A stretch of 64,000 bases of DNA from Flavobacteriales bacterium (GCA_018402015.1 JAGYJL010000005.1:7499-71498); one strand, 5' to 3'; positions 12,001 to 36,328 are shown, counted from the first letter of the stretch. Notes: generated by a model not told the origin, from the letters alone. Program-made: numbers and translations.

Positions 12001-12129
12001 CTTTCCAAGCTTCTACATCATAGAATTCTGAAGCTAAATGCGCTGAAACGCGTTTGTTTCAGAAAAAATCTCGGTTTGTTGATTATTCCCATCATTTCAC
12101 CTAATTCCACTGCTTCTTTTACGTCATAA

Positions 12130-12930: not shown

Positions 12931-12938
12931 CAGTACCG

Positions 12939-13491: not shown

Positions 13492-13541
13492 CCTTGTCAG
13501 TTCTTACCGAAGATTAAATTTGCTATTCAAACCCACTTAAA

Positions 13542-15908: not shown

Positions 15909-15984
15909 AACGAAAAATGAAAAAGGGAAGAATGTGTCTGGGTGCCCGTTTTTCTTTTTCTCATTTTTCCTGTAAACTGTTTGA

Positions 15985-17567: not shown

Positions 17568-20500
17568 ATGAAGAAATTCCTCTTTCTACTAGCAGTAATA
17601 GTTACAGCCTCTGCTGGTATTTCATCGGCACAACAGCTTAAGTCGTTTACCCACGATAACGAGAAGTACATTCAAGAACTTCAGGATTTCTTCGCACAAG
17701 GCGATCCCAAAGCAGCTAAGAAGTTGATTGAGGAAACGTTTCTGCCCGTTTGGAACAGCGGACATTACAGCACGCAGCAGAAAGAGCGTGTTTATACCAT
17801 GTCCGACCTGATGTTGAAAGAGAAGAAAAAAGCGGTCGATTTCGAGAACTACCTGTACGCCCTCATGAGCTTTGCAAAAAGTATGAAGCCTGCATCCGAT
17901 TTCGATGCATTTCATGACGGTATGGAACAGACCATTCAGAAACTTTCCAGAAAGGGATTTACCAGTTATCTGGAAGTGTGTAGAGGCCTTTTTACCGAGT
18001 ACATTCTATTTGAATCGCCTGCAGTAAAATGGGTGGCAAAGTTCGATGCGTATAAGATCCAGTTCGATTCTTTACCGAAGATCGTTTTCGGAAAACTTGA
18101 CCTCAAAGCCTATTCAAAGCGCGATAGTTCGGTCATTTATGGAACCGAAGGTGTTTATTATCCAACCATTACCAAATGGGTCGGAAAAGGTGGAAAGATC
18201 GATTGGAGACGAGCAGGTTTCGACCCGAATAAGACCTACGCGGAGATTGACAATTATGTATTGAATACAACCAAATCTCAGTACGAAATAGACTCCGTAA
18301 CATTCCATCATCCCGATTATCTCGACCGTCCGCATATCGGAAAACTGACCGAGAAAATTCTTGCCGATGTGGATACTTCAGATGCTTCCTATCCTCGTTT
18401 CGACTCATACGATAAACGCATCGTTATTGAGAACATGTACAAGGACATCGATTATTCTGGTGGCTTCTCTCAGCACGGAGTCAAGTTTATCGGTTCAGGT
18501 GATGATGAGCAGAATGCTACGCTCATCTTCCGTAAGATGAACCACATCACCAAAGAGAACGAACCATTTATGGAAGCGCGCTCCAAGTCATTCGTTATTA
18601 GGCCAGAGAAGATCCTTTCCAAGAAATCGGAGATAGCTATGTACTATGAGGGAGATTCGATCTATCATCCCGGTCTACGTTTGAATTATAACGTTGAGAA
18701 TCATGAAGTAACGCTTAGTAAGGAAAGTGAAGGCTCGGGTCGGAGCCCGTTTTTCGATAGCTACCACAAGGTAGATATGCACGTAGATGAGATAAAGTGG
18801 AACATGGTTCAGGATTGGATGGATCTGGCCAACACCACTGGTGGCGCAGAAAGTAGTGCGCTGTTCGAGTCTGAGACCTATTACGATGAGTACCGCTACG
18901 ACCGCATTCGTGGCACTGCAGACACACATCCATTGTGGAAGATCCGGAACTACGCCAAGGAGATTGGAATGGAAGAGCTGACCGTAGAGCAAGTTGCACG
19001 CTTGTTCAAGGCGGATATAAGTGAGACCAAAGTGTTCCTAATGAACCTGTCCAACTCGGGTTTCATGACCTATAATTACGATAAGGAAATAGTGGTGATC
19101 AAACCGAGATTGCATCATTATGTGCTCTCTCGATCGCGGAAAACCGATTATGACATTCTTCAGTTCGAATCGACCATTGAAGGGTTGCCGAACGCGAAGC
19201 TCAATCTGTTGAATTGGGATATGGACCTCAATGGGGTAGGCAGAGTTTTCCTTTCAGATTCTCAGAACGTGGTCGTTTTCCCTTACGAACAAGAATTGAC
19301 GCTTAAAAAGAACCGTGATTTCTCGTTTGATGGAAAGGTTATCGGTGGTCGTTTAGACTTCTTTGGTCATGACTTTTACTTCAGCTACGATGATTTTAAG
19401 ATCAATCTTAATAAAGTCGATTCAATTCGTTTGAAAGTGCCAGATGGCGAGCCGGACGAAAATGGAAGGCAGAAACTGCGCGCTGTAAAAACCGTGCTTC
19501 GCGATCTGAAAGGAGAGCTCTTGGTGGATAGACCTGATAATAAATCAGGTCTCGTGGATCATCCGCGCTACCCGGTGTTCAATAGTACAGACGATTCGTT
19601 CGTATACTATGACAAACGCTCCATTCAGGATGGTGCGTACAAGAAGGAATCGTTCTACATGCACCTCAAACCATTCAGTATCGATAGTTTGGAGAACTTC
19701 ACCAAAGAAGGTCTGGCCTTTGGTGGAACCTTTGTCTCGGCAGGTATTTTCCCGGACTTTGAGGAAACCCTCACACTACAGCCCGACTTCTCGCTCGGTT
19801 TTGTTCGAGAAACACCACCCGAAGGTCTAGACATGTATGGAGGCAAAGGAAACTACAAGGCTACCATTAAACTCAGTCATGACGGTTTGCGTGGAGACGG
19901 TGATCTGGAGTATTTGACCTCGGTTTCCAAGTCAGATGATTTCATATTTTACCCCGATTCGGTGAACGGAGTTGCACAGGATTTTACCATAACCAAGCAG
20001 AAAAGCCCAACTGCTTATCCGCCAGTGGTGGGTAAAGATGTTCGGGTGCATTGGATGCCTAAGTTGGATCACTTCTATTCGTACAAGATCGATAACGCCT
20101 TTGATATGTACGAAGGCGAAGTGGCACATCATGGAGGCTTGGATCTCTCACCAAAAGGTTTGGATGGTTTCGGAAATCTCGATTTTGCGGATAGCTACAT
20201 GCGGTCTAACAGATTCAACTTCGATTACCGCGATTTCCATGCCGACACGGCCGATTTCAAGTTGAAAGGAAAGTCAGAGACATCCTACGCGTTTAAGACA
20301 AGTAACGTGCAAATGGATGTCAACCTCGATGATAGGAAGGGTAAGTTCAAATCCAATACGGGGGGCGATTACGTAGATTTTCCGGTTAACCAATACATCT
20401 GTTATATCGATGAGTTCGTTTGGAACATTGATGCTAAGGATATTGATGTCGTTTCCGATGGAGAAGGCTCGCGTTACGTAAGTACAAACCCAAAGCAAGA

Positions 20501-21986
20501 TTCGTTGGAATGGCGGTCGCCACTTACCAAGTTCGACCTTGACAATTTCATCATTTCCGCCAAAAAGGTCGATCACATAGATGTGGCCGATGCGATCATT
20601 TATCCAGATAGCGGGAATGTTACCGTTAGAGAACAAGCAGCCATGGATCCGCTCGAGAATTCTCGGGTTGTGGCCAACCGTATCACCAAGTTCCACACAT
20701 TCTATGAGTCAGCCGTCAATGTGCTTGGTAAGTGGAAATATACAGGCACTGGTAAGTACGATTATGAGGATGTAACGGGAGCCAAGCAGTTGATCGATTT
20801 CTCAACCATTGGCGTGGATTCTGCAGGACAGACCTTTGCAACTGGTGTGATTACGGAAGAAGCATCGTTTACCCTCAGTCCTAATTTCGATTATAAAGGA
20901 AAGGCGAAACTTTTTGCCAGCAAGGAGTTCTTGACCTATGAAGGAAGTACTCGTATCAAACACGATTGTCCCGGGCTTGCAAGAGATTGGCTGGCCTTTG
21001 ATGCCGATATAGACCCGAATAGCATCTACATTCCTATTCCTGCCGATCCTAAAGACGCAACTGGAAAGGCCATGTCATCGGGTGTTGTTATCAGTAAGGA
21101 TACCACAAAGGTTTATCCGACATTCCTGTCTAAGAAGTTACAGGCCAACGATATAGATATCGTAGCTGCAGAGGGCTATCTGCACTTCGATAATGAGAGT
21201 CAGGAGTACCGCATATCCAATAAGGACAAACTGCAAGGTGCCGTGGTTGGTGGTAACTACGTTAGTTTGAGTAACGAGTGTATTGCTCGCGGGCAAGGCA
21301 AGTTGAACATGGGAATGGATTTCGGTCAGGTTGAGCTTACTCCTTTAGGAACGGTCGAACACAACATGAATAACGACTCCACCAAATTCAAGTTATTCCT
21401 CGGTTTAGATTTCTTCTTCAATGATGAATGTCTAAGAATTATGGCCGATCGATTGACCAATCATTTTCCGCCATTGGACCCCGTGTTCTATGGTACAGAG
21501 TATGAAAAGGCGCTGATCGAACTCGTTGGTAAGGAAGAAACAACCAAGCTCATTCAGGAATTGAACCTATATGGATCTTTCAAGAAACTGCCTAAGGAGT
21601 TGCAGAAGACCATGTTCCTTACCGATGCTGAGTTGACCTGGGATGCTGAATCAGGTTCGTACCGATACAAAGGATTCATTGGAATTTCGTCTGTTGGTAA
21701 GTACCAAGTAAACAAAATGGTATTCGGGTTGATAGAGTTGAAGAAGAAACGAAATGGCGATGAGCTTTCTGTCTATTTCGAACCGAGCGATGATAGTTGG
21801 TTCTACTTTAACTATAAACGAGGCATGCTCGGAGCGGTTGCATCGCACGATGATTTCAATGCGCAGATACGTGACACCAAAGACGACAAACGAACTCAAA
21901 AAGGAGAGAAAGGCAAGCCTAATCTCACCTATGTTCTTTCAACAGCTATACAAAGAAGAAATTTTGTTCGTTCGTTTGAAGAATGA
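17568..21986 (+). CDS. Giant secreted hypothetical protein (1472 aa) that is co-operonic with tpiA-prmA. It may be a TamB/AsmA-like envelope protein, but I recognise no diagnostic motif.
   Basis: The signal peptide is MKKFLFLLAVIVTASAGISSAQQ. The frame is continuous for 4.4 kb. There is a 1-nt gap to prmA. Confidence 0.55.
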   Translation: MKKFLFLLAVIVTASAGISSAQQLKSFTHDNEKYIQELQDFFAQGDPKAAKKLIEETFLPVWNSGHYSTQQKERVYTMSDLMLKEKKKAVDFENYLYALMSFAKSMKPASDFDAFHDGMEQTIQKLSRKGFTSYLEVCRGLFTEYILFESPAVKWVAKFDAYKIQFDSLPKIVFGKLDLKAYSKRDSSVIYGTEGVYYPTITKWVGKGGKIDWRRAGFDPNKTYAEIDNYVLNTTKSQYEIDSVTFHHPDYLDRPHIGKLTEKILADVDTSDASYPRFDSYDKRIVIENMYKDIDYSGGFSQHGVKFIGSGDDEQNATLIFRKMNHITKENEPFMEARSKSFVIRPEKILSKKSEIAMYYEGDSIYHPGLRLNYNVENHEVTLSKESEGSGRSPFFDSYHKVDMHVDEIKWNMVQDWMDLANTTGGAESSALFESETYYDEYRYDRIRGTADTHPLWKIRNYAKEIGMEELTVEQVARLFKADISETKVFLMNLSNSGFMTYNYDKEIVVIKPRLHHYVLSRSRKTDYDILQFESTIEGLPNAKLNLLNWDMDLNGVGRVFLSDSQNVVVFPYEQELTLKKNRDFSFDGKVIGGRLDFFGHDFYFSYDDFKINLNKVDSIRLKVPDGEPDENGRQKLRAVKTVLRDLKGELLVDRPDNKSGLVDHPRYPVFNSTDDSFVYYDKRSIQDGAYKKESFYMHLKPFSIDSLENFTKEGLAFGGTFVSAGIFPDFEETLTLQPDFSLGFVRETPPEGLDMYGGKGNYKATIKLSHDGLRGDGDLEYLTSVSKSDDFIFYPDSVNGVAQDFTITKQKSPTAYPPVVGKDVRVHWMPKLDHFYSYKIDNAFDMYEGEVAHHGGLDLSPKGLDGFGNLDFADSYMRSNRFNFDYRDFHADTADFKLKGKSETSYAFKTSNVQMDVNLDDRKGKFKSNTGGDYVDFPVNQYICYIDEFVWNIDAKDIDVVSDGEGSRYVSTNPKQDSLEWRSPLTKFDLDNFIISAKKVDHIDVADAIIYPDSGNVTVREQAAMDPLENSRVVANRITKFHTFYESAVNVLGKWKYTGTGKYDYEDVTGAKQLIDFSTIGVDSAGQTFATGVITEEASFTLSPNFDYKGKAKLFASKEFLTYEGSTRIKHDCPGLARDWLAFDADIDPNSIYIPIPADPKDATGKAMSSGVVISKDTTKVYPTFLSKKLQANDIDIVAAEGYLHFDNESQEYRISNKDKLQGAVVGGNYVSLSNECIARGQGKLNMGMDFGQVELTPLGTVEHNMNNDSTKFKLFLGLDFFFNDECLRIMADRLTNHFPPLDPVFYGTEYEKALIELVGKEETTKLIQELNLYGSFKKLPKELQKTMFLTDAELTWDAESGSYRYKGFIGISSVGKYQVNKMVFGLIELKKKRNGDELSVYFEPSDDSWFYFNYKRGMLGAVASHDDFNAQIRDTKDDKRTQKGEKGKPNLTYVLSTAIQRRNFVRSFEE

Positions 21987-22018: not shown

Positions 22019-22092
22019 GGCTATGTAGCTCAACTGGATAGAGCACCTCACTACGGATGAGGAGGTTCGGGGTTCGAATCCCTGCATGGTCA
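22019..22092 (+). tRNA. tRNA-Arg (anticodon ACG), 74 nt, with no encoded CCA
   Basis: Manual fold: acceptor GGCTATG/CATGGTC with two G·U pairs, D-arm GCTC-AACTGGATA-GAGC, anticodon stem CCTCA/TGAGG with loop CTACGGA giving ACG, variable loop AGGTT, and T-arm CGGGG-TTCGAAT-CCCTG. Confidence 0.85.
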
Positions 22093-22104
22093 CAGCAAAA
22101 GGAA

Positions 22105-22126
22105 GGAGGCAGCAGCCTCCTTTTTT
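22105..22126 (+). terminator. Rho-independent terminator after tRNA-Arg
   Basis: ggaggc-agca-gcctcc followed by T6. Confidence 0.55.
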
Positions 22127-22147
22127 ATTGCCCTGCTTTAGCCATAG

Positions 22148-22324
22148 CGGAAGTTTACCATCGGGCTTTTCGGTAGCCGAATCATCATGGAGAAATTGAA
22201 CTATGTCCATCAGGATCCGGTCGAATCGCATCTTGTGCAATTTCCTGAACAGTATATTTACAGTAGCGCAGTGAACTATGCCGATGGCATCGGTCTGCTG
22301 GAAGTTGAACGCATTGGATATTGA
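22148..22324 (+). mobile_element. 3' remnant (~58 codons) of an IS200/IS605-family (COG1943, REP-associated tyrosine transposase-like) transposase gene. The N-terminal catalytic part is absent.
   Basis: The open frame RKFTIGLFGSRIIMEKLNYVHQDPVESHLVQFPEQYIYSSAVNYADGIGLLEVERIGY* resembles the C-termini of Bacteroidetes COG1943 transposases (...IHxNPVRAGLVxxPEDYxYSSAxxY...GLLEVE...). Only 55 nt separate the upstream in-frame stop (22145-22147) from the tRNA. Confidence 0.5.
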
Positions 22325-22507
22325 AATGAGAGCTATGGATGCTTTAGGAATGATGAATGCTTCGGAGATCAGTCAAATCCCGATAGCTATCGGGATGATC
22401 GTACCAAGTTCCACACAAGACATCCTGTGGAAGTCTTGCGTGATCGGGTGTTCTTTGTGCAATGACCTAAGATTGCTGCAAACAGCACGACTGCTTAAGA
22501 CACGGGA

Positions 22508-24016
22508 ATGAGAGCCGTGAGAACCATAGCGGGATCAATTATTGCCTTGCTGATATTTACGAAATGTCAGGTTCAGGCGCAGCCTATCCGGTTTTCGGAA
22601 CATTACGACCTGAACAATGGAGCCGGAGGCTTCTTGTCCGGGATCCATCTGGGAAATGATACGCTGCTTGTGGTCGGCTATAGTCTCAACCTGTCAACCA
22701 ACAGTGGGTACGATGAGGGGCATCATATAGTGATCGGATCGGAAGGCGAACTTATACATGAACACCAGTTGAGTGCACAACAGATAAGTTACAAGACCAA
22801 CAACATCATCCGTTCATCCTATTCAGATGCCATATTTTCGGCAGGATCTCATTGCGATTACAATGTGCCAAGCCCCGGCTACTGCGACTTCTACTTCGCT
22901 CGACTGGATGAGACAGGCGACACCCTTTTCACCAAGGTGCTCGCAAGGCCCGATACGAGCGACCTACTTTTGAGCATGGTGGAGACCCGCCCCAACAAGA
23001 TAATGCTCATCGGTTGGACCTACGATGACACCACCGATACCAATGCGGACATACTGCTCATTACCGTAGACACCCTTGGCAACGAGGTGAACAGGGTTGT
23101 TTATGGGGGGGGTGGTACGGATTATATCCATTCGGGTATCGTTATAAATGAAGATGGCGAGGTGTTGATGACGGGATATACGGCAAGTTTTGCCGGGTCG
23201 GATAATGACACCTGGTTGATCAAGACCGACAGCATTGGAAATGTTATCTGGCATCAGACCTATAATCATCTTTCTTCTTCTGGTGGTGACGCGGCATCAA
23301 GTGTAAGCAGGTCAAATGATGGAAACTTTTTTTTGGCAGGAGGAGCTGAGAATTCTTCAAGTGGAAATTCCGATGGTGTTCTTATGAAGATAACACCGGA
23401 TGGAGATCCGGTTTGGACAAAAAAGTACATCCCCAACAGTGGGTCGCAGAGTTTTTGGTCTGTCCAAGTTCTTCCCAACGGGGATATTGTGGCTGTCGGT
23501 CAAACAACTAATACTGATGACGGCAGTCAGGCCGGATGGTTGGTGAAAACCGATGCCAATGGTGACACCCTTTGGACACGCACGTACAACCCTTCTGATG
23601 CCACAGACCTGCTACGCAATATGTTGGTTATGCCCAACGGGGATATTGTGATGGTCGGTTTTGGCCGCGGAGAGAACTCCACCACACAGGATGGCTGGAT
23701 ATTGCGGGTAGATAGCATGGGGTGCTTGGTGGAGGGATGCTTTTCCGTAGGGATTGACGATAGAACGATTGACGATGAACGATTTGCGATTTTTCCAAAT
23801 CCTGCGGAGAACATTTTGAACATCGTTTCAGAACAAGCAATGGAAGAGGTCAGATTGTATGATATGCAAGGCCGCACGGTAAGTTCATTCATTTTGTTGC
23901 GTCAGCAAACCTTGGAGCTTGACGTTTCCGGGCTGAACGCAGGTCTGTTCATTCTGGAGGTGCTTGACACAGAGGGCATCCGCAATGTGAGAAAGGTTAT
24001 TGTTGAAAGGCCATGA
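22508..24016 (+). CDS. Secreted β-propeller-repeat protein with a T9SS type-A C-terminal sorting domain
   Basis: The signal peptide is MRAVRTIAGSIIALLIFTKCQVQA. Repeated DGWLVKTDxxGDTLWT / NGDIVxVG motifs are present. The C-terminus (FAIFPNPAENILNIV...LYDMQGRTVSS...LDVSGLNAGLFILEV) is a Por-secretion CTD. An internal G8 tract lies at 23105-23112. Confidence 0.75.
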   Translation: MRAVRTIAGSIIALLIFTKCQVQAQPIRFSEHYDLNNGAGGFLSGIHLGNDTLLVVGYSLNLSTNSGYDEGHHIVIGSEGELIHEHQLSAQQISYKTNNIIRSSYSDAIFSAGSHCDYNVPSPGYCDFYFARLDETGDTLFTKVLARPDTSDLLLSMVETRPNKIMLIGWTYDDTTDTNADILLITVDTLGNEVNRVVYGGGGTDYIHSGIVINEDGEVLMTGYTASFAGSDNDTWLIKTDSIGNVIWHQTYNHLSSSGGDAASSVSRSNDGNFFLAGGAENSSSGNSDGVLMKITPDGDPVWTKKYIPNSGSQSFWSVQVLPNGDIVAVGQTTNTDDGSQAGWLVKTDANGDTLWTRTYNPSDATDLLRNMLVMPNGDIVMVGFGRGENSTTQDGWILRVDSMGCLVEGCFSVGIDDRTIDDERFAIFPNPAENILNIVSEQAMEEVRLYDMQGRTVSSFILLRQQTLELDVSGLNAGLFILEVLDTEGIRNVRKVIVERP

Positions 24017-24143
24017 GGATTCTGCTGTCAATACAGGTGCACTTATCATTACGCTTGAGGGCGACAGCCAAGACCTTGATAGTGAGACGCTGATGGTGCA
24101 GTAACCCCAACAAGGTCGTGTACCTATTGTAAAAACAACAGAA

Positions 24144-24180
24144 AGCGGAGTTAGGCCCTATGCCTAACTCCGCTTTCTGT
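24144..24180. terminator. Bidirectional hairpin terminator between the convergent 22508..24016 and 24198..25163 genes
   Basis: A perfect 13-bp stem agcggagttaggc / gcctaactccgct with loop cctat. Confidence 0.55.
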
Positions 24181-24197
24181 ATTACAGACACGTGGTC

Positions 24198-25163
24198 TTA
24201 CGCGGGGGTGATCACCTCCATGTTGTAGCTTCCAGCTATGGCCGGGTCGGTGTTGGTCACGTTGAAGAAACTGCTTGTGGGGTTGCTGAAATCGCTGGCC
24301 TTTCCTTCAATTACAGCTCCGGGGGCAAGCGTAAGCCCATCCACCCCGCAGGCCAAGTTGGCGTCTGTGCTCTCGCAGAAGGTCAATGGCACCGTTCCAG
24401 TGTTGGTAATGATGATGGTGGCATTGGCCGCCATTCCCTGTAGAATATTGACCGTGGATAATGGTTCCACCGTACCGCTGTATTCCTCTTCGATAGGCGG
24501 TTTGCTGGCGTGCTGTTGCAGCAGGCTCACTTCAAAGTAGTTGAAAATGGTGTCGGGCGTCAGTCCGAACTTGTCCATGAGCGAACCGAGGTTACGATAC
24601 ATCATTACAGCAATGTCTTTTCGGGCGGCCTCCAGGTCGGTGCTGGCCTGTGCGCTGGTCTGTTCGCGTGCCTGCTGGGCATCGCGTGCGGCCTTGATGG
24701 TGGTGTAGAACCCATCCACCGTACCTTTGAGTGCGGCCAGTGGGGCATAAGAACCTAACGAGTCGCCAAGGGTCTTAACAGCGGCAATGCGCTCATCCTT
24801 TGTGCCTTGCTGTAGCGGTTCGCGGCCGCTTGGCAGCAAGGTGGTATGTTCTACCGTTCCTTTATCGTACTGCACCATAATGTTGGTGTCCCACTGCCGG
24901 GCCAATGTGGCCGAAAGACTGTCTAGCATGGCATCTACCGTTTGCGTAGCGCCTTTGTAAAAGGCCTGTTCGCTTTTCCAGTTGCTATACCGTTGCAAAT
25001 AAAGATCGTGCACCGGAGTGGTGCGGTTAAGTAAGATGAGAATGTCGGGGTCGGCCTGTTGCGCCAGCAGTTTGGCGTAGTGGTCGTTGGTCACTGTCAG
25101 CATCAGTCGGTAAGAACCAACCGTTGCATTGTCGAACTGATTTTCAAGATAATGCCATTCCAT
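24198..25163 (-). CDS. Hypothetical cytoplasmic protein (321 aa) with no recognisable domain. Its composition is atypical, about 56% GC in a sampled 100 nt against about 42% for housekeeping genes here.
   Basis: Long clean ORF with no signal peptide. GC enrichment is judged by eye from a manual count of 100 nt. It lies inside the tRNA-flanked islet. Confidence 0.55.
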   Translation of the reverse strand: MEWHYLENQFDNATVGSYRLMLTVTNDHYAKLLAQQADPDILILLNRTTPVHDLYLQRYSNWKSEQAFYKGATQTVDAMLDSLSATLARQWDTNIMVQYDKGTVEHTTLLPSGREPLQQGTKDERIAAVKTLGDSLGSYAPLAALKGTVDGFYTTIKAARDAQQAREQTSAQASTDLEAARKDIAVMMYRNLGSLMDKFGLTPDTIFNYFEVSLLQQHASKPPIEEEYSGTVEPLSTVNILQGMAANATIIITNTGTVPLTFCESTDANLACGVDGLTLAPGAVIEGKASDFSNPTSSFFNVTNTDPAIAGSYNMEVITPA

Positions 25164-25295
25164 GATCGGTATTTTTAAAGGTTATACCAGCATTAACTGA
25201 GGCCACGATTGGTTTATTTTTTGGCATATTCTGCTTTAACATTTCTTCACAATTGTGCACTACAACCGTGGCGCATGGATGCCCGACAACGGAAT

Positions 25296-25589
25296 GGCAC
25301 GCCACAGTTGTTCGGTGCGATCGGCAGCGTAGAGAATGCCACGCCACAGTTGTTCGGTGCGATCGGGAGCGTAGGGAACGGCACGCTACAGATGTTCGGT
25401 CTGATCGGGAGCGTACCGAATGCCACGCCACAGATGTTCGGTGCGATCGGGAGCGTAGGGAATGGCACGGCACAACTGTTTGGTACGATCAGGAGCGTAC
25501 CGAATGGCACGCCACAGTTGTTCGGTGCGATCGGGAGCGTAGAGAATGGCACGGCACAACTGTTTGGTGCGATCGGGAGCGTACAGAAT
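25296..25589. repeat. Tandem minisatellite: 7 copies of a 42-bp unit (consensus ggcacgccacagttgttcggtgcgatcgggagcgtagagaat), plus a degenerate 8th copy upstream at about 25263-25295
   Basis: Units start at 25296, 25338, 25380, 25422, 25464, 25506 and 25548, with 3-8 substitutions per unit. The period is 3×14, and 4 of 6 frames are open across the array (track ORFs 25209-25607+, 25253-25603+, 25247-25624- and 25144-25473-). Confidence 0.9.
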
Positions 25590-25647
25590 CCGACTACACT
25601 TAGTTGAAATTGCTTCACCACCAACTGTGCAGAAGTGGCGGTGCGGT

Positions 25648-25693
25648 GGTTCGGGGTTCGAATCCCTGCATGGTCACAGCAAAAGGAAGGAGG
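25648..25693 (+). repeat. Direct repeat of the 3' ~30 nt of tRNA-Arg plus its downstream terminator stem (att-like duplication); identical to 22064-22109
   Basis: ggttcggggttcgaatccctgcatggtcacagcaaaaggaaggagg occurs at both places. Upstream of the copy the sequence (ggcggtgcggt) diverges from the tRNA body. Confidence 0.8.
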
Positions 25694-25710
25694 TTTAGCC
25701 TCCTTTTTTT
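25689..25710 (+). terminator. Hairpin plus T-tract following the partial tRNA copy
   Basis: ggagg-tttag-cctcc followed by T7. Confidence 0.5.
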
Positions 25711-25743
25711 ATTCCCACCAATCAAATAACCACTTTATTACAT

Positions 25744-26298
25744 TTGCACGAACAATACGTCTCAGTGCAAAAAGCAATCATTCGCATAGGTGTTTTCTCA
25801 GTACTTGTCAGTTTTATGGCTGCTTGTTCATCCAATAAGAACTTGGTGTCGGTATTGGTAGAAGACAAGGCTGGCAATGTAGAGTTGATCTACACCAAAG
25901 CACAGGCCCCGGAAAATCTGGTAAAAGAGATACGTTATTACCCAAATGGCGACACGCTAAGTGTTACTCCAATGCTGAAAGGCGCAGTTAATGGAGTGGT
26001 GAGCAATTATCATAAGAACAACAGACTCAAAGAGCAGATCAGTTTTGTTAATGGTAAGCAGAATGGTGCGTTCAGAAGGTTCGATGCAGAAGGCGTTCTT
26101 GTGTTTGAAGGAAGCTTGGTAGATGGTAAGAAGACTGGCGTTTGGACCACTTGGTATGATGAGGTTCAGATGGAAGAACAGAGAAACTATACTGACGATG
26201 TGCCAGACGGAAAATGGACCTATTGGTACATAGATGGAAGCCCCAAAAGAGAAGAGGTGTACAAAGCTGGCAAGCTCATTGCAGAGAAAGACTTTTAA
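25744..26298 (+). CDS. MORN-variant repeat (YwqK-like 'antitoxin' family) lipoprotein
   Basis: A lipoprotein-type N-terminus (SVLVSFMAACSS) is followed by repeated GxxxxYYxNGxxK / GKxxGxWTxWYxxG units typical of the MORN-variant/YwqK family. Confidence 0.65.
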   Translation: MHEQYVSVQKAIIRIGVFSVLVSFMAACSSNKNLVSVLVEDKAGNVELIYTKAQAPENLVKEIRYYPNGDTLSVTPMLKGAVNGVVSNYHKNNRLKEQISFVNGKQNGAFRRFDAEGVLVFEGSLVDGKKTGVWTTWYDEVQMEEQRNYTDDVPDGKWTYWYIDGSPKREEVYKAGKLIAEKDF

Positions 26299-26312
26299 TC
26301 GACCCCATAGTG

Positions 26313-27086
26313 ATGAGATTTTTACTTCCCCTAATATTACTACTGCCACTTGGCACACTTGCACAGGAAACTGTTAAGGAATTTTACGAATCGCGCAGAC
26401 TCAAATCGGTTGCAACCGTTGAAAATGGTCTGAAAAACGGAGTTTATACCGAGTGGCACGAGAACGGCCAGAAGAAAAGCGAAGGCGTTTATAAAGACGG
26501 GAAGAAAGAAGGCAAGTGGCAGGAATGGTATCAGAATGGAAAACTGTGGAACTTAATGCATTTCGAAAATGACATACCGAACGGTCGTTATGTAGATTAC
26601 GATATGAATGGTGCCCAGGTTGAGGAAGGAAATATGCTGAATGGTGTTCCGAATGGCCCTTTTTACACATGGTATAATGATGGCACGGCTAGGAGTGAAG
26701 GTGTTCTAAAGAACGGAATGAAAGTGGAGGTCTGGACCACGTACTACGAGAATGGTGTCAAGAAAGATCAGGGAGAATACAAGATGAACCGCAGGGTAGG
26801 AACTTGGGAAGAATGGCACGAGAACGCTAAAATGAAATCTCGTGGAACCTACTTTGCCGGACTAAAACACGGTAATTGGACCTATTGGTTCAGTAATGGA
26901 AGAAAAGAGAAGGAAGGAGAGTACTTTGAAGATCGCCTAAAAGGCATTTGGAGCCATTGGCACGAGAACGGACAACTGGAAAGTAAAGGCAATTATTTCG
27001 GAGAACAAAAGGTCGGAAATTGGAAGTATTGGAACGCTGATGGCGAGTTGGTGAATCAAGAAACCTTCCCTGTTCCGGAGCAATAG
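26313..27086 (+). CDS. MORN-variant repeat (YwqK-like) secreted protein, paralogous to the preceding gene
   Basis: The signal peptide is MRFLLPLILLLPLGTLA. There are 8 or more repeats of the form NGxKxxEGxYKDGKKEGKWxEWYxNG. The track ORF begins at 26214, but the likely start is the signal-peptide Met at 26313. Confidence 0.65.
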   Translation: MRFLLPLILLLPLGTLAQETVKEFYESRRLKSVATVENGLKNGVYTEWHENGQKKSEGVYKDGKKEGKWQEWYQNGKLWNLMHFENDIPNGRYVDYDMNGAQVEEGNMLNGVPNGPFYTWYNDGTARSEGVLKNGMKVEVWTTYYENGVKKDQGEYKMNRRVGTWEEWHENAKMKSRGTYFAGLKHGNWTYWFSNGRKEKEGEYFEDRLKGIWSHWHENGQLESKGNYFGEQKVGNWKYWNADGELVNQETFPVPEQ

Positions 27087-27166: not shown

Positions 27167-30100
27167 GTGAAAAGACTTTTACTCCTCCTCATTACCATAT
27201 TCACTTTCGGGATTCAACAAAGCTCTGCTACCCATATAGTAGGTGGCGAATTGGTATACACATATCTTGGTGCCAGCCAGTACGCTGTTACTCTTGTTGT
27301 TTATAGAGACTGCCTTGGCGGTCAGGCTGCATTCGACAATCCTGCCAATGTGGGTATTTTCGGTGCCAACGGAAATCTGGTTCAGAATCTTAACTTCTCG
27401 TTGGATTCTGTGGTCACCATACAATCCAGCATCAATTCCAGTTGCGTAGTTGCTCCAAACAATGTTTGTACAGAAGCAGGTTACTATACGGAGATAGTTA
27501 CCCTTCCTCCAGTAATTGGCGGTTACACTATTGCGTATCAACGTTGCTGTAGAAATGCCGTAGTTCAGAATATTACCGATCCAGGAGATGTAGGTGCTAC
27601 CTACGTGGCAACTATTCCGGGTAGTGAGTCGCAGCCTGCAAACTCAAGCCCGTTCTGGTCTCAATTACCACCGCTTTACGTGTGTGTCAATCTTCCTTTT
27701 CAGTTCAATCATTCTGCTTTTGATCAAGATGGCGATTCGTTGGTTTACTCCCTTTGCACACCATACGAAGGAGCAAGTTCTGGTGCACCGCAACCCGATC
27801 CTCCAGCTGCCCCACCTTACACTCAAATAACTTGGGAACCACCGTACTCTCTTACCGATATGATGGGCGGACCAGTACCATTGACCATCAACTCAGTTAC
27901 TGGTCAGATCAACGCAACGGCAGATGCTGTAGGAACTTATGTGATCGGTCTTTGTGTACGTGAGTACCGAAATGGTGTTCTCTTAGGGGAGACCAGAAGA
28001 GGGATTCAGGTGAATGTGGTTAATTGCCAAGCACCGGTTGCGATTCCTGATGACGTGAATGAAATAAGTCCCAACTCCTTCATTAACTGTACAGAGTTCG
28101 TAGAATTCAATGCGTTCAATTCTGCTGGATTTGATATCTGGTGGGATTTTGGTGACCCTACCACTACAGCGGATCAAGCAACTACGCAATCTACATCTTG
28201 GACCTATCCTGGACCCGGAACTTATGACCTGACTCTGGTTGTTTATAATCCGATCAATCCTAACGACCCATTATGTACCGATACCGTTGTGCAGCAGGTA
28301 GTAGTTCAGGATACGGTCATTCCAGACGCAGGACCCGATCAGGCAACTTGCCCTGGAATACCTGTTCAGTTAGGTACGGCTCCAATACCGGGTTGGACAT
28401 ACCAATGGAGTCCTTCAACAGGTCTTGATAATCCAAATATTGCTCAACCAACAGCTACCATAACGGGGCCTATCACGTACACGCTTACCGCTTCAGATGC
28501 GGTTGGTTGTACTGGTTCTGATGAAGTGAATATCACGCTTCTGTCAAATGCAAATGCAGACGCTGGCCCGGATGTACAGGTCTGTTCTGGAGATTCCGTT
28601 CAGTTGAATGCTACTGGTGGTGTTGACTACCTATGGATTCCGAATCTGTTCATCGATAACGTCAACATCTCCAACCCGAACGTTTACCCTATTACTACAC
28701 AACCATACATTGTTGCAGTTACCAATTCTGATGGGTGTATCGGAATTGATACGGTAATTGTTGAGGTTCTTTCACCACAACTTACCGTTTCTGCAGACGA
28801 GACCATTTGTTTTGGCGATACCACGCAATTGTCTGCAAGTGGTGCCAATACTTACATATGGTCGCCCAACACCGATATCTCAAATATTAATGTTGCAGAC
28901 CCATTGGTTTGGCCAACTGTAACCACCACGTATTTGGTAGATGCTGTGGATGCCAATGGTTGCGAATTGCAAGGTCCTGTTGTCGTCACGGTTCAAGCTT
29001 TACCTGTAGCTGATGCTGGCCCGGATGCATCTGTTTGTGATGGAGAATCCATCCAATTGAGCGCTTCAGGTGGTACGAACTACACTTGGACTCCAAGTGG
29101 AACACTTAGTAACCCATCCGTTGCTAACCCTATTGCAACACCTACTGCCAATACGGTCTACACCGTCACAGTTTCAGATCAGTTAGGATGCGAGAATGTT
29201 GATTCGGTTGCAATAACGGTTGATCCACTGCCAGTGGCTGATGCAGGTGCGGACGGAATCGTTTGTAATGGAATTGGAGTTCAATTGAATGCTTCTGGTG
29301 GTTCTACCTATTCTTGGTCTCCTGTTATTGGTCTTTCCGATGCTAGTATTTCCAATCCCATTGCGTTGCCAGCTGTTCCTACATCGTACGTTGTCACGGT
29401 AACAGATGCAAACTCATGTACTGCTTCGGATACTGTTTTTGTCGACATTTTTACTGTGGATGCAATTGGAGATACGATTATCTGTATTGACGATGCGGCA
29501 CAATTGGGTGTACTGGGAGGTACAAGCTGGACATGGTCACCAGCCACTGGGCTTTCCGATTCGAATGCGCAATTCCCAACTGCGAATCCAACTACAACAA
29601 CGGTTTACACCGTTCTTGCCGATGATGGAACAGGCTGTCTTGCAACAGATTCTGTTGTGGTTGTGGTCAATCCACTTCCAACGGCCTTTGCTGGTTTTGA
29701 TCAAGGAGTTTGTGCGGGAAGTACAGCTCAGTTGAATGCAACTGGAGGTGTTAGTTACCAATGGACGCCTGCGGCTGGTTTGAGCAATCCGAACATCTCG
29801 AGTCCAGTTGTCACTTTCAGTTCAGATACAGTTACATATGTCGTAATAGTAGCGGATGCCATCGGATGTGTTAATTCAGATACAGTAACGGTTTGGCAAG
29901 AGCCTTTGCCTGATGCGATTGCTGGTCCAGATACAACGATATGTTTCGGGCAGAGCGTTCAACTGTTCTCAGGTGGAGGTGAAACCTACATCTGGGATCC
30001 TACAACAGGATTGAACAATCCGAACATTCAGAATCCAGTTGCATCTCCCGCAACCACTACTACTTACACGGTAACTGTTGGACAAACAACGGGCAATCTC

Positions 30101-32056
30101 GTGTTCAACGGAGATTTCTCACTAGGTAACGTTGGCTTCGGAAGCGATTACACTTATGCCACTAACCTGATTCCTGAGGCCTTATACAGTGTTGTTACAG
30201 ATGCAGGTGATGTGCATCCAGCGTTTGTCGGTACAGGACACACAGGTAATGCTCCTGTAGATAGCTTCTTAGTGGTAAATGGTGCTGGCACGCCAAATCA
30301 GAACGTCTGGTGTCAAACGGTATCCGTATCTCCAAATACGGATTATTACTTCGGGGCATGGGTAAGTACTGTTGTGGCCAGCAGTCCTGCAATTCTTCAG
30401 TTCTCCATTAATGGTCAGGTTTTAGGAACTCCGTTCAATGCACCTTTTAATACCAATAACTGGTCTCAGTTCTTTGAAGTTTGGAATTCAGGAACAGCTA
30501 CCACAGCTACCATCTGCGTGGTCAATCAGAACACTAATACTGGAGGAAACGATTTTGCCATTGATGACATTACGTTCAGCACCTTCTGTACCAATACCGC
30601 AGAAGTTACTGTAACCGTCAACCCGCTTCCTGTTGCCGATGCTGGTGAGGATCAATCTATTTGTATAGGTGATGTAACACAATTGGAAGGTGCTGGTGGG
30701 GTAACATATCAATGGGTTCCTCCGATAGGGTTGACAAACCCAGCTGATCCGAATACAGATGCATCCCCAGTTATCACGACCACCTACACACTTATTGTGG
30801 AGGACAATATTGGTTGTTCAGCTACGGATCAAATGACCTTAACTGTCAATCCATTGCCTGCTGCAAACGCTGGTCCGAATCAAGAACTTTGTATCGGAGA
30901 AAGCGTGGTGCTCCAAGGTTCTGGGGGTATAGATTACGTTTGGACGCCAGGAACCTACTTGGATGATGCTACTGCTCAGCTTCCTATTTCTACGCCCGAT
31001 CAGACCATTACCTACACTGTTACTGTAACAGATCTTAATGCTTGTGTCAATAGTGATGTGGTAACAGTTACCGTTAATCCGTTGCCTGTTGTAGACGCAG
31101 GATTAGATAGTATGATCTGCGCTAACGGAAGTTTAGTGCTTCAAGGATCTGGTGCAGCTACATATATATGGAGTCCGTTAGTAGGTCTAAGTGATCCCCA
31201 AAGTGCCACCCCAACTGCATCACCTCTGGAACCAACAACTTACTTCGTAACCGGAACAGACGTAAATGGTTGTGTGAATTCAGATTCCGTCAACATCACC
31301 ATTTTCGGTGTAACAGCAGGTCCGGATAGCGTTATATGTTTGAATGATAGCGTTCAAGCTTTTGTGAGTGGCGGCTCAACCTTTAGCTGGAGTCCTTCTG
31401 AAGGTGTAAGCGATACGGCTTCAGCATCGCCATTCCTTATTCCGTCTGTTGGTACAGATTATACGGTAACGGTGATAAGTGAGTATGGATGTGAGGCTTC
31501 TGCTGATGTTAGTATTGGTATTCTTACACTGCCTGTTTCTGCTTTTACTGCAGATTTTGAACCGAGTTGTGATGGCATCTACGCGGATTTCAATAATGAC
31601 TCTGAAAATTCGGAGACCTACTACTGGAGCTTTGGAGACGGAACTACTTCAACCGAGTTTGAGCCAACCCACACCTACGAGCCAGGACAGGGAAATGTCG
31701 TTACCCTCATTACTTACAATAATGACAGTCTTTGTGTCGATTCATTCACCGTAGATTATACCGGTCAATGGTTCGGAAACGACTCTATTGATATCAATTA
31801 CAGTAATGTATTTACTCCAAATTTCGATGGTATCAATGATTGCTTCCGACCAGGTTTTGATGGACGATTCAGCGATTGTTACCAGTTGCAGGTATTTAAC
31901 CGTTGGGGAGCGTTGATCTACGAATCTACTGGTGGGCAGAACCATTGTTGGGATGGCTACACCAAAGGAGGAAAGCGTTGTGATGAAGGAACGTACTATT
32001 ACATCGTATCTTTAAAGGGATACGAGAATCATGGATACGTCACACTTATTTATTAG
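27167..32056 (+). CDS. Giant cell-surface protein (1629 aa) with an N-terminal conserved domain, about 16 Ig-like ~80-aa repeats, one inserted non-repeat β-sandwich-like domain, and a T9SS type-B (CHU_C, gliding-motility-associated) C-terminal domain
   Basis: The signal peptide is MKRLLLLLITIFTFGIQQSSA. Repeats follow DAGPDxxxCxGxxVQLxAxGGxxYxWxPxxGLSxxxxxNPxAxPxxTTxYxVTVTD.NGC. The C-terminus (VFTPNFDGINDCF...VFNRWGALIYES...CWDG...GTYYYIVSL) is the CHU_C signature. Confidence 0.85.
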   Translation: MKRLLLLLITIFTFGIQQSSATHIVGGELVYTYLGASQYAVTLVVYRDCLGGQAAFDNPANVGIFGANGNLVQNLNFSLDSVVTIQSSINSSCVVAPNNVCTEAGYYTEIVTLPPVIGGYTIAYQRCCRNAVVQNITDPGDVGATYVATIPGSESQPANSSPFWSQLPPLYVCVNLPFQFNHSAFDQDGDSLVYSLCTPYEGASSGAPQPDPPAAPPYTQITWEPPYSLTDMMGGPVPLTINSVTGQINATADAVGTYVIGLCVREYRNGVLLGETRRGIQVNVVNCQAPVAIPDDVNEISPNSFINCTEFVEFNAFNSAGFDIWWDFGDPTTTADQATTQSTSWTYPGPGTYDLTLVVYNPINPNDPLCTDTVVQQVVVQDTVIPDAGPDQATCPGIPVQLGTAPIPGWTYQWSPSTGLDNPNIAQPTATITGPITYTLTASDAVGCTGSDEVNITLLSNANADAGPDVQVCSGDSVQLNATGGVDYLWIPNLFIDNVNISNPNVYPITTQPYIVAVTNSDGCIGIDTVIVEVLSPQLTVSADETICFGDTTQLSASGANTYIWSPNTDISNINVADPLVWPTVTTTYLVDAVDANGCELQGPVVVTVQALPVADAGPDASVCDGESIQLSASGGTNYTWTPSGTLSNPSVANPIATPTANTVYTVTVSDQLGCENVDSVAITVDPLPVADAGADGIVCNGIGVQLNASGGSTYSWSPVIGLSDASISNPIALPAVPTSYVVTVTDANSCTASDTVFVDIFTVDAIGDTIICIDDAAQLGVLGGTSWTWSPATGLSDSNAQFPTANPTTTTVYTVLADDGTGCLATDSVVVVVNPLPTAFAGFDQGVCAGSTAQLNATGGVSYQWTPAAGLSNPNISSPVVTFSSDTVTYVVIVADAIGCVNSDTVTVWQEPLPDAIAGPDTTICFGQSVQLFSGGGETYIWDPTTGLNNPNIQNPVASPATTTTYTVTVGQTTGNLVFNGDFSLGNVGFGSDYTYATNLIPEALYSVVTDAGDVHPAFVGTGHTGNAPVDSFLVVNGAGTPNQNVWCQTVSVSPNTDYYFGAWVSTVVASSPAILQFSINGQVLGTPFNAPFNTNNWSQFFEVWNSGTATTATICVVNQNTNTGGNDFAIDDITFSTFCTNTAEVTVTVNPLPVADAGEDQSICIGDVTQLEGAGGVTYQWVPPIGLTNPADPNTDASPVITTTYTLIVEDNIGCSATDQMTLTVNPLPAANAGPNQELCIGESVVLQGSGGIDYVWTPGTYLDDATAQLPISTPDQTITYTVTVTDLNACVNSDVVTVTVNPLPVVDAGLDSMICANGSLVLQGSGAATYIWSPLVGLSDPQSATPTASPLEPTTYFVTGTDVNGCVNSDSVNITIFGVTAGPDSVICLNDSVQAFVSGGSTFSWSPSEGVSDTASASPFLIPSVGTDYTVTVISEYGCEASADVSIGILTLPVSAFTADFEPSCDGIYADFNNDSENSETYYWSFGDGTTSTEFEPTHTYEPGQGNVVTLITYNNDSLCVDSFTVDYTGQWFGNDSIDINYSNVFTPNFDGINDCFRPGFDGRFSDCYQLQVFNRWGALIYESTGGQNHCWDGYTKGGKRCDEGTYYYIVSLKGYENHGYVTLIY

Positions 32057-32066
32057 ACATACAGAT

Positions 32067-35000
32067 ATGAAAGAAAAGAGCCCGTTCAGATCGGTGCTCT
32101 TTGTTCTTTTTCTTGCTTTTGCTTTTTCGTCCAGCGCGGAGAATAAGCCTAAGTTCATTGAGAACAAAGGGCAGTTTCCAACTCAAGTGGAGTTTAAGTT
32201 ACGCGTGGCAAATGCAGATGTCTATTTCGAGCGAGATAGGCTGACCTTCAACTTTTTCAATTCAGAGCTTATTCATCAGCACGAAGAGGTTCATAAACAT
32301 AGTTCCGCCACGGGACATGCGTATGCCGTGTTTTTCGAAGGAGCTAATCCAGATGCTCAGGTGGTTTCTAGCGGGCTAACTTACCCTGATAAGATTAACT
32401 ACATCAGAAAGGATAAATCTGTAGCCGGAGTTCAATCTTTTGACCAATTAGTTTATGATGAATTGTACGAGGGGATTGATTTGCTTTACTACGGCAAGAA
32501 TGGCGACCTGAAGTATGATGTGCGTATTGATGCGGGAGCAGATGTTAGTGCACTGCAGATGAGGTATGAAGGCGTTAATCAAATCAAACTTCAGACTGGA
32601 AAGCTCATTGTTTCCAACACCTTCAATACTATTACGGAATACATCCCTTTGGCGTATCAGATTGCAAACGGGGCACAAGTAAAAGTAGATTGTGAGTATA
32701 AGCTCGAAGGGCAAACAGTAAGTTTTGAATTTCCTGATGGTTATGATGAAACCAAAGAGTTAATCATCGATCCGACACTTATCTTTTCATCGTACACAGG
32801 GTCAACGGCAAATAATTTTGGGTTTACCGCCACCTATGACGAGGATGGAGCACTTTACGGAGGAGGAATTGCGTTTGCTGAAATAGGAAATTCGTACCCA
32901 ACAACAACGGGGGCTTATTCTTTAATCAACTCAGGTCTTGTTGATATGGCAATCTCGAAGTTTGTTCCTGATGGAACATCGCTTGAGTATTCAACATACA
33001 TTGGAGGCGCAAGCTGCGAAGCTCCGCATAGTATGATTGTAAATAACCAAGGTCAGCTAGTAATTTTAGGTAGTACCAGCTCTTTGGATTTTCCTACCTC
33101 TGTTTCTGCGTTCGATAGCGATTTTAATGGCGGAACAGCAGTAAACTACACGGCTAACGGAACCAATTTTGAGAACGGTTCGGACATAGTTGTTGCAGTA
33201 TTAAGTGCTGATGGAACGACCTTAGTAGGCTCTACTTATTTAGGAGGTTCGCTCAATGATGGCTTGAATGAAGACGCTACGCTCAGCTATAATTACGGTG
33301 ATATCTTCCGTGGTGAAGTAATTGTTGATTCTCAAGACAATATCTACATCGCATCGAGTACGGTTTCATCAGATTTCCCAGTAACCTCTGGTGCAATTGA
33401 CCAAACCTTGGGAGGAACTCAAGATGCGTGTCTGGCCAAGTTCAATGCAGATGTTTCTGTACTAGAATGGTGCACATACGTTGGTGGTTCATCTGCTGAT
33501 GCGGGGTATTCCATGAAGATCAATTCCAATAATGAGATCTATCTGGCTGGTGGTACAACCAGTTTGGACCTTTTGGTAGATGCAGGAGCCCTCTTCAATA
33601 CCTATGAGGGAGGTACTGCAGATGGATTTGTTTATCGTTTTTCAAACGATGGGAATACACTTATCAGCAGTACCTACATCGGTACATCGGGTTATGATCA
33701 GAGCTATTTCGTGGAGGTAGATGATGACGATGATATTTACGTTTATGGTCAATCAACAGGAGCTTACCCCGTAACAAGCGGTACATATTCCAATACAAAT
33801 GGAAAACAGTTCATTCAGAAGATAACGCCAGATCTAACTACTTCAATCTATTCAACGGTTTTTGGAAGTGGAGCCTCCGCAATTAATATTTCGCCAACGG
33901 CCTTTTTGGTAGATATATGCGAGCGTGTGTTTGTATCTGGTTGGGGTGGTGGCACCAATAATAGTTGGAACACTGCTACGGGAAATACAGTTGGCTTGCC
34001 GGTTACCACCGATGGCGTGCAACAGACAACCGATGGCAGCGATTTCTACTTCATGGTTTTAGAGGCAGACGCTACGGCATTACTCTATGGTTCTTATTTC
34101 GGTGGAAACGGAATTCAGGAACACGTAGATGGCGGAACAAGTCGATTCAACGAGAATGGCGTCATTCATCAAGCGGCTTGCGCGGGTTGTGGAGGAAGTG
34201 ATGCTTTTCCAACAACACCGGGAGCGGTTTCCAACATCAACGGAAACAGCTGTAATCTAGGAGTAGTAAAACTCGATCTGGAGATAACTGCTGTTCAGGT
34301 AGAGATTTCTGGAAACGGAACAGAACAGGGTTGCGTGCCTTTTGCCGTGCAGTTCGAATCCGATCTCGTCAATGCCAGTAGCTTCATTTGGTATTTCGGA
34401 GATGGAGATACGTCTTCTGTAGCGAATCCGGGGCATATTTACACTGATCCGGGAGTTTACGAGGTTATGTTGATCGGTACAGATACATCATTCTGTACTG
34501 GCGAAGCTTTCACTGATACTGCTTTCGTAACAATAACGGTCAGTCTGCTTACCGATGCTGCAGAAGCGGGTATTGGCGGCAACCTTTGTCCTGGCGAATC
34601 GGTACAATTAGGAGACAGCGCCATTCCAGGATATTCCTACAGTTGGAGCCCATCAACTGGCCTGTCCGATCCAACCTCAGCACAACCCGTTGCAGCCCCT
34701 GATGAAGACACTCAGTACTACCTTACTATAACGAATGCGGATAATTGTGAAGACGTTGATTCTGTTCTTGTTACGGTTTTTAGCATTGCGGCTTTCCCAG
34801 ATACCACAATATGCGCCAACGATAGTGTTCAGGTGCAGGTTTTAGGAGGTTCCACTTTCTCATGGAGTCCAGTAGATGGAGTTAGTGACCCAACCATTTC
34901 GAATCCATACATAACAGCGGGATTCGCCAATCTATACACGGTAACAGCTTCTGATGGAACTTGTCAGGATACGGCCAATATCATTTTAGGCTTTCAGCCA

Positions 35001-36247: not shown

Positions 36248-36328
36248 CTGGCGTAAATCGTTAGTAACTGCTTGAATAATTCAGGTTTCCGAATTGTAGA
36301 CACCTTTTTGAAAGGATAACTTTGCCTT

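Follow-up and report, generated by a model that had tools for sequence, protein, structure and literature searches.

Few systems are known in which an array of repeats is paired with a gene (iterons, centromeres, type III antitoxins and CRISPR). ToxI consists of 5.5 repeats of 36 nt upstream of toxN, F sopC consists of 12 repeats of 43 bp, and rep genes commonly have iterons upstream of them. Here we describe a gene for a 321-residue protein in a 64,000-nt stretch of DNA from a Flavobacteriales bacterium (GCA_018402015.1, JAGYJL010000005.1:7499-71498; the whole stretch is referred to below as the window, and positions are counted from its first letter). The gene is preceded by a tandem array with a period of 42 bp, and our most informative finding, which escaped a preliminary description made from the sequence alone, is that this adjacent array is a conserved partner of the gene family. 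The preliminary description had treated the 42-bp repeat as a separate object; instead, an array accompanies the gene in 31 of the 34 loci compared, and the array in the window is part of the target gene's unit, which has these features:

25292-25589, no strand assigned: tandem array, 42 bp x 7.1 copies (84% matches, GC 58.7%), from Tandem Repeats Finder (TRF) and alignment of the units
25164-25291, minus strand: spacer of 128 bp from array to start codon, with a TTTAAAA motif and an array-like element, from the sequence and the alignment of relatives
24198-25163, minus strand: target open reading frame (ORF), 321 residues, ATG to stop, coordinates exactly confirmed
24138-24180, minus strand: intrinsic terminator belonging to the target, in which a perfect stem of 19 bp closes a loop of 5 nt and TGTTTTT follows, from an inverted-repeat search and a terminator scan

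The array is the window's one long-period tandem repeat and ends 128 bp upstream of the target ATG. It was surveyed by TRF together with 33 homologous loci (n = 34; individual loci are given L numbers), all of the carriers recovered being metagenome-assembled genomes (MAGs) and metagenome contigs. An array with a period of 41-44 bp and 1.9-8.5 copies, ending 44-399 bp before the start codon, was found by TRF in 30 of the 34 loci, and the upstream array of L005 has a period of 126 bp (3 x 42), bringing the total to 31. Autocorrelation of the upstream 650 bp gave a peak at 41/42 bp, or at a multiple of it, in all loci but L018 and L022, with the signal in L012 being weak. Away from the family upstream zones there were four arrays in ~800 kb (three within family loci, the fourth in unrelated control loci totaling 208 kb), so that arrays are enriched ~360-fold upstream of family genes over background, in counts that are not fully independent as some of the loci are closely related. 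Three further 42-bp arrays are distant from the identified homolog (L022, 15042-15232; L035, 15640-15813; L033, 10519-10598); two of them abut contig ends, and an unseen second paralog is possible there. The contigs of L004 and L020 begin inside an array, and assemblies tend to break at these arrays.

It is the period of the arrays that is conserved (41-42 bp, approximately four helical turns), and not their sequence. No k-mer or motif is common to the array units beyond related loci, and the unit sequences differ between paralogs of the same MAG (L014/L016, L024/L031, L033/L034, and L027/L035). Arrays accompany proteins down to ~28-30% identity. One of the loci with an array, L009, encodes a short-tailed member of the family, and because arrays occur even with such a member the association is with the N-terminal domain of the protein (N-domain). 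In the window, the units alternate between ...CCGAACAACTGTGGCG... and ...CCAAACAGTTGTGCCG..., whose CAACTG and CAGTTG cores are mutually reverse-complementary, with a resulting super-period of 84 bp; positions 5-6 of the unit are hypervariable in this array. A single gene-proximal, array-like element is kept in the spacers of the window, L002, and L007 (CCACGGTTGTAG in the window, about 95 nt upstream of the start codon). In L013 (about 790-840), one unit of the type found in L016 at 9535-9890 (AAGGAGTTGCTTGGTGGCAAC, 21 nt identical) is located between L013's own, different array and the gene. These arrangements suggest that arrays are replaced or turned over around a retained gene-proximal site.

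The preliminary description was accurate as to the ORF itself, which is real and has exactly the coordinates that were proposed, and as to its lack of a signal peptide, there being no hydrophobic, signal-peptide-like run at the N-terminus (MEWHYLENQFDN, read directly from the sequence). Having neither an N-terminal signal peptide nor a Por_Secre_tail domain, the protein does not resemble cargo of the type IX secretion system (T9SS). No recognizable motif or function had been noted, and none emerged: the protein belongs to no Pfam, PHROG, or NCBIfam family at cut-off (Rep families of Pfam and NCBIfam included) and has no sequence match in the PDB. Membership of a defense system was rejected, as there was no PADLOC hit. 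The AlphaFold2 model (mean pLDDT, the predicted local distance difference test, of 87 at full length and 93.5 for the N-domain alone) agrees with the helical N-terminal half and β-rich C-terminal segment of the earlier account, and the C-terminal peptide quoted there is present. In the model, the N-domain (about residues 1-216) contains two helices of ~60 residues (39-98 and 140-198) connected by a conserved tip, LLPxGRxPFQxGT, and is followed by a C-terminal domain (C-domain, residues 224-319) predicted to be a β-sandwich of the jelly-roll/Ig-like type. When the model was submitted to Foldseek, as had been proposed, only the C-terminal ~100 residues found matches, to small jelly-roll/Ig-like domains such as Ena subunits, PirA, and cupins, with target-normalised template modeling (TM) scores of 0.5-0.7. 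The N-domain alone had no match in the PDB (best E 0.14, to generic coiled coils) and, as modeled, would represent a novel helical fold. A pore former of the CAMP-factor/ClyA type was considered and rejected, as Pfam CAMP_factor was found in one of 149 family members (E 2e-5) and not in the window protein, and the Foldseek probabilities for ClyA and XaxB (0.12-0.18) amount to no significant fold match.

A word-indexed search found 28 relatives of the protein, and exhaustive searching with HMMER yielded 829 cluster representatives at E <= 1e-3, 634 of which are at E <= 1e-10; none of these proteins has an informative name. Most of the representatives are 315-330 residues long, and the family comprises at least 829 clusters at 50% identity. 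Searches of genomes placed the family only in MAGs of Bacteroidota and Ignavibacteria, plus one contig of ~64% GC not placed taxonomically, and five MAGs each have two divergent copies. No relatives were found among the viral contigs of IMG/VR, the phage records of INPHARED, or the plasmid records of PLSDB; tblastn against 72,556 plasmid records gave no family match, and the core of the 42-bp unit is absent from the viral contigs. The N-domain is the constant part of the family. After it, 118 of 149 aligned members have 80-130 residues, which in the window protein form the β-sandwich, and a few have a recognizable PKD, DUF5001, Big_1, or CarboxypepD_reg domain in the C-terminal part. Another 22 members end in short tails, and in those with a complete N-domain the tail is acid-rich (about 24% Asp+Glu). 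Individual architectures vary further: P0036 has two tandem N-domains and an acidic tail, P0037 has a different, longer C-terminal extension, and in P0122 a β-rich segment like the C-domain of the window protein is inserted at the tip of the helix hairpin (read from sequence). A conserved Cys pair was rejected as a sign of export, as it is present in only 39 of 118 C-domains, and a search with the C-domain alone returned nothing usable. The protein is acidic (isoelectric point, pI, 4.66; family median 5.06), and the near-invariant residues of the family are mostly hydrophobic or structural with none that look catalytic. From these features we infer that the product may be a non-enzymatic scaffold or binding protein.

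The gene had been singled out as compositionally foreign, with a GC content of about 56% against a background near 42%. The actual values are 54.2% (55/43/65% at the three codon positions) and 44.6% for the window; the target is still the GC maximum among all 966-bp stretches of the window (z = 4.5). However, a high GC content at third codon positions (GC3; 64.6% in the target) is not peculiar to this gene. GC3 of the homologs exceeds that of their neighbors in 29 of 31 loci (mean +9.5 points, Wilcoxon p = 1.6e-7), with GC1 also raised and GC2 not, and with C- and G-ending codons both enriched. The DNA surrounding the homologs spans about 30% to 64% GC, and homolog GC3 follows host GC3 (r = 0.81). 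Since the excess recurs in this way and tracks the host, we regard it as a property of the family, and not as the signature of a GC-rich donor. It is possible that high expression, or a GC bias associated with recombination, is the cause. A practical consequence is that composition-based island callers will flag the genes of this family as foreign, whether they are foreign or not.

The surroundings of the ORF indicate that it is a stand-alone gene with its own terminator. It is convergent with a T9SS-cargo gene (22508-24016), as had been described, and the strong bidirectional hairpin which the two were thought to share is present between them as a perfect 19-bp stem; however, the T-run follows on the minus strand only (TGTTTTTACA), and the terminator scan assigns the hairpin to the target and not to the T9SS gene. 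Across the 33 loci and the window there is no recurring neighbor gene family, and there are no conserved operon partners. In the window spacer, the TTTAAAA motif begins 15 nt 5' of the ATG (about 25173-25178), and about 22 of 36 loci have YTAAAW at -15 to -19 relative to the ATG. This element recalls the TAAAA ribosome-binding motif reported for Flavobacterium. In none of 30 loci does the spacer between array and gene contain a terminator consisting of a hairpin and T-run.

The target and its array are located within an insertion at the 3' end of a tRNA gene. In addition to the unit described above, its features are:

22019-22093, plus strand: tRNA-Arg(ACG), the integration target, from ARAGORN (Rfam tRNA, 63.4 bits)
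22064-22109, no strand assigned: left copy of the direct repeat, consisting of the tRNA 3' end and the start of its terminator; 46 bp exact, with imperfect similarity over 22058-22133
22148-22324, plus strand: possible C-terminal remnant resembling a repetitive extragenic palindrome (REP)-associated tyrosine transposase, with no intact start; reads ...MEKLNYVHQDPVESHLVQFPEQYIYSS... and ends ...KLNYVHQDPVESHLVQFPEQYIYSSAVNYADGIGLLEV; tentative
22508-24016, plus strand: T9SS-secreted, β-propeller-like protein of 502 residues (Por_Secre_tail E 7.9e-12; hits to TIGR04183 and delta-60 repeats; GC 48.7%)
25648-25693, no strand assigned: right copy of the direct repeat, a tRNA-Arg 3' fragment without the 5' half, with imperfect similarity over 25642-25716 that includes the terminator hairpin

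The two copies of the direct repeat are 3,584 bp apart and differ in their terminator loops, and the right copy is not called as a tRNA by the tRNA search. Between them, 22094-25641 constitutes an insertion of 3,548 bp with a GC content of 50.5% versus 44.3% elsewhere (z = 6.5). Its ORFs encode the T9SS protein, the target, and the weak transposase-like fragment, with no integrase or recombinase among them. The fragment, at the tRNA-proximal end, matches only model positions 120-146 of 146 of NCBIfam REP_Tyr_transpos, at an E-value (0.01) far below cut-off in significance, and is probably the remnant of a gene.

The occupied and empty forms of this site can be compared in relatives. Fifteen metagenome loci contain an ortholog of the 1472-residue gene that precedes the tRNA in the window, and in 13 of them the same tRNA follows directly. 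(The 1472-residue protein, at 17568-21986 on the plus strand, has an N-terminus resembling a signal peptide and matches nothing in Pfam at E <= 0.001, and many metagenome contigs have it, at 77-90% identity, beside tRNA-Arg.) The site is empty in L050 and L047, with tRNA-Arg directly before the MORN genes, and the flank beyond the right repeat of the window aligns there. In the window these genes, which encode two adjacent MORN-repeat proteins of 184 and 290 residues in overlapping reading frames (25744-27086, plus strand), follow the insertion, and a TAnnTTTG-type box (TACATTTG) just past the right tRNA repeat is conserved in L047. Other relatives have other cargo at the same tRNA-Arg: L043 alone has a large serine recombinase (Resolvase, Recombinase, and Zn ribbon domains; 11153-12811, minus strand), and L044 has ~6 kb, with genes at 11974-16234 for MbnP, two MauG-like di-haem peroxidases, and T9SS-tailed cupredoxins. 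The site looks like an integration hotspot, and the location of the target in an acquired or accessory insertion is supported. The preliminary description's suggestion of horizontal acquisition therefore stands on the direct repeats and the empty site, but loses its compositional argument, the GC3 excess being family-wide; its further suggestion that the target was the only acquired cargo does not hold, as the whole of 22094-25641, T9SS gene included, is one insertion.

In related genomes the unit occupies a different accessory site. L002, a close relative, is collinear with the window over 28400-40438 (GuaA is about 90% identical over a 523-residue translated match), and its homolog is placed in the interval from VanY to GuaA, which in the window is only about 80 bp long. 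In this variable segment of 5.6 kb (L002 9526-15128, versus window 36247-36344) are an array, the homolog, a SprB-like T9SS gene, and HicAB, with simple repeats of 7 bp at its end; a 1413-residue gene of the window (40581-44822) is absent from L002. As the window has the unit at tRNA-Arg and L002 has it between VanY and GuaA, the unit is found at different sites in related genomes. It had been proposed that homologs be checked for co-occurrence with tRNA-associated islands and with the 42-bp repeat: they co-occur with arrays of the 42-bp type (31 of 34 loci) but not with tRNAs, the window apart, no homolog having a tRNA within about 3.8 kb. In three loci a tRNA is 3.8-9.6 kb from the gene (L008, the nearest at ~3.8 kb, L011, and L034). 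L013 also has a Flavo-1 small RNA (9605-9689; Rfam RF01705, 50.3 bits) ~8 kb from its homolog, which is probably unrelated. No housekeeping family conserved in syntenic position in relatives, which had been named as the outcome that would overturn a foreign origin, was found.

Several possible functions for the array as a sequence were considered. It is not coding sequence: in several arrays every one of the six frames is interrupted by stops, and the period of four arrays is 41 bp. ORFs of 110-132 residues do cross the window array (25209-25624, both strands), one of which would give 14-residue repeats (TLPIAPNNCGVPFS), and we regard these as artifacts because the repeat is stop-poor and the arrays of other loci have stops in all frames. 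The arrays have no strand skew, no predicted strand-specific RNA structure, and no Rfam match. The units are self-complementary to a modest degree, and to the same degree on each strand (mean z -1.0 and -0.8; p about 0.01-0.03), as expected for DNA dyads, and about a third of the loci have clear palindromes (e.g., GATCGTAGATCTACGATC in L002 and TCTGCACGTGCAGA in L026). An inverted repeat, and the finding that TGCCATTC is the complement of GAATGGCA (from codon 2 to the second base of codon 4), had raised the idea that units pair with the translation-initiation region. This was rejected, as cognate pairing (-17.2 kcal/mol) is no better than non-cognate pairing (-16.3 kcal/mol; p = 0.14), the ranks of the cognate units are evenly spread, and the opposite strand pairs equally well. 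Intrinsic DNA curvature was also rejected: by a wedge model with Bolshoy/Trifonov parameters, the curvature of the arrays does not exceed that of repeats built from shuffled units (mean z -0.09), and a straight path is predicted for the window array. Nor is each unit likely to be a promoter, TAnnTTTG boxes being almost absent from the arrays, and recognition by one host factor through a common motif was rejected because no k-mer recurs beyond related loci.

We tentatively favor the reading that the array is a cognate cis-regulatory DNA element and that the gene encodes a non-enzymatic, helical/β-sandwich binding or structural protein. On the minus strand this self-contained unit starts with the 42-bp x 7 array (25589 to 25292), which is followed in turn by the spacer of 128 bp, containing an A-rich, TAAAA-type element, by the ORF, and by the strong hairpin terminator. 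The array would act in cis as DNA, its units serving as repeated protein-binding sites on the same face of the helix (42 bp corresponding to four turns), and the proteins bound to it would set transcription of the adjacent gene. The product would be an acidic, non-enzymatic protein with a helical stalk and a variable β-sandwich head, would have a binding or structural role, and would probably be made at a high level. A binding array at the DNA level is favored, although not proven, because the dyads are equal on both strands, the cores alternate, and a proximal element is retained. Hints of expression are the GC3 excess (29 of 31 loci), YTAAAW at -15 to -19, and the stand-alone gene with its own terminator.

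Several observations weigh against a cis-regulatory array. A solo array of 42 bp x 7.5 copies is located in L049 (18555-18870), flanked by an ORF for an 81-residue Cys-rich protein on one side and by the uvrA 3' end on the other; no family gene adjoins it, so that this type of repeat can exist without the gene or outlive it; conversely, L018 and L022 have the gene without an array. The unit of the window itself lacks dyad symmetry (z +0.24 and +1.43). With no motif common to the arrays, no shared host factor can be named, and the product, being acidic, is a poor candidate for the array-binding protein. In most loci the canonical Bacteroidetes TAnnTTTG box occurs neither in the array or spacer nor within 300 bp upstream, so that the array could be transcribed. 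Conservation of the period could in part reflect inheritance under concerted evolution and not selection. High expression is inferred from composition and layout only, and the enrichment of both G- and C-ending codons means that the signature of translational selection is not clean.

Among the alternatives, a possible though rather doubtful one is a self-recognizing module of a new kind, widespread in Bacteroidota and Ignavibacteria, in which the protein, or a complex containing it, would recognize its own array or the array transcript. Such a module may be regulatory or have a role in addiction or defense, and would move between chromosomal sites with an array whose period is fixed and whose sequence is free to co-evolve with the protein. 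A more specific proposal is an RNA-repeat pair resembling type III toxin-antitoxin (TA) or abortive-infection systems, whose array would be co-transcribed with the gene and cut to 42-nt units that bind and neutralize the cognate protein. A tandem array that immediately precedes one gene in the same orientation (31 of 34 loci), the lack of a canonical promoter between the two in most loci, the cognate-specific units, and the variable or island positions of the unit are all consistent with this proposal, and binding to a cognate protein would explain why the unit has a fixed length and a free sequence and differs between paralogs. Nevertheless, we consider it unlikely, as there is no terminator between array and gene in any of 30 loci, no strand-specific RNA structure or Rfam match, and no relative in the phage and plasmid collections, while the protein is acidic (pI 4.66), helical, twice the size of ToxN-type toxins, without a PADLOC or Pfam hit, and without invariant residues that look catalytic. 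It is similarly improbable that the array is neutral and satellite-like, kept homogeneous by unequal crossing-over upstream of a gene that simply encodes a well-expressed structural protein and has its conventional promoter within the spacer. Higher-order periods of 84 and 126 bp are typical of unequal exchange, and the lack of a common motif, copy numbers of 1.9 to 8.5, the solo array in L049, and the two loci without an array would all fit neutral DNA. However, over divergence down to 28-30% identity a neutral array would be expected to be lost or change its period, yet 31 of 34 loci keep its position and a period of 41-44 bp, and its enrichment over background is ~360-fold.

It is very unlikely that the target is just an orphan gene of the ordinary kind, acquired recently from a donor richer in GC, and that the 42-bp repeat beside it is unrelated and incidental. 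The gene does have the highest GC in the window and does lie in an insertion with att-like repeats for which relatives have an empty site, but a GC3 excess in 29 of 31 loci that tracks hosts of about 30% to 64% GC (r = 0.81) does not point to one donor, and an array in 31 of 34 loci is not incidental. For composition and repeat this view is largely refuted. We give still less credence to the unit being the remnant of an integrated replicon or partition cassette, with the array as iterons or a sopC-like centromere and the ORF as a Rep or centromere-binding protein. Four to eight direct repeats beside a single gene, with units specific to each paralog, would fit such a cassette. Against it, there was no hit in 72,556 plasmid records and none in phages, the contexts are all chromosomal with unrelated neighbors and neither a partner NTPase nor other plasmid genes, and the protein is acidic with a predicted fold that is not winged-helix and no PDB match. 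A cis-regulatory array with a non-enzymatic protein product is the reading that we prefer.

Whichever of these applies, the unit of gene and array fits no known family and has no match in the databases and papers searched; nothing relevant was found in the literature on 42-bp repeats or type III TA systems in Bacteroidetes. If the association of gene and array is functional, then at least 829 clusters of "hypothetical protein" in a major bacterial group share an architecture that has gone unrecognized, the unit would be a new case beside the few repeat-plus-gene systems listed at the outset, and there would be a concrete, testable handle on a new protein fold.

The locus shares individual features with several described systems. 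Like tRNA-linked genomic islands, the insertion in the window is at a tRNA 3' end with a direct repeat, has a deviating GC content, and corresponds to an empty site and to different cargo in relatives. Unlike them, it measures just 3.55 kb and lacks an integrase or other recombinase, having only the weak transposase-like remnant, and it looks like a decayed or trans-mobilized islet. The C-terminal ~100 residues of the protein superpose on Ena endospore-appendage subunits, PirA, and Pfam DUF5001 with TM scores of 0.5-0.7, a similarity that is limited to one domain at 9-21% identity, leaves the window protein below the Pfam cut-off, and implies no function. With the type III TA systems ToxIN, CptIN, and TenpIN the locus has in common a fixed-length, direct-repeat array 5' of one gene, locus-specific repeats, and a mobile or accessory position; it differs from them in having no terminator between array and gene, and in encoding a 35-kDa, acidic protein, helical with a β-sandwich, and not a small, basic endoribonuclease of the ToxN/AbiQ/CptN/TenpN type. 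Iteron-controlled rep genes (those of pPS10 RepA, F RepE, and P1 RepA) have, as here, four to eight repeats in the same orientation by one gene and cognate specificity, whereas the unit described here has a period of 42 bp and not about 22 bp, is chromosomal with no plasmid hit, and encodes an acidic protein that is not winged-helix. Finally, although no ParA/SopA-type NTPase or ParB/SopB-type partner is nearby, the one gene that the array precedes is unrelated, and there are several divergent copies per chromosome, the arrays resemble the F sopC centromere in having nearly the same period and possibly a short dyad per unit, as seen in about a third of the loci.

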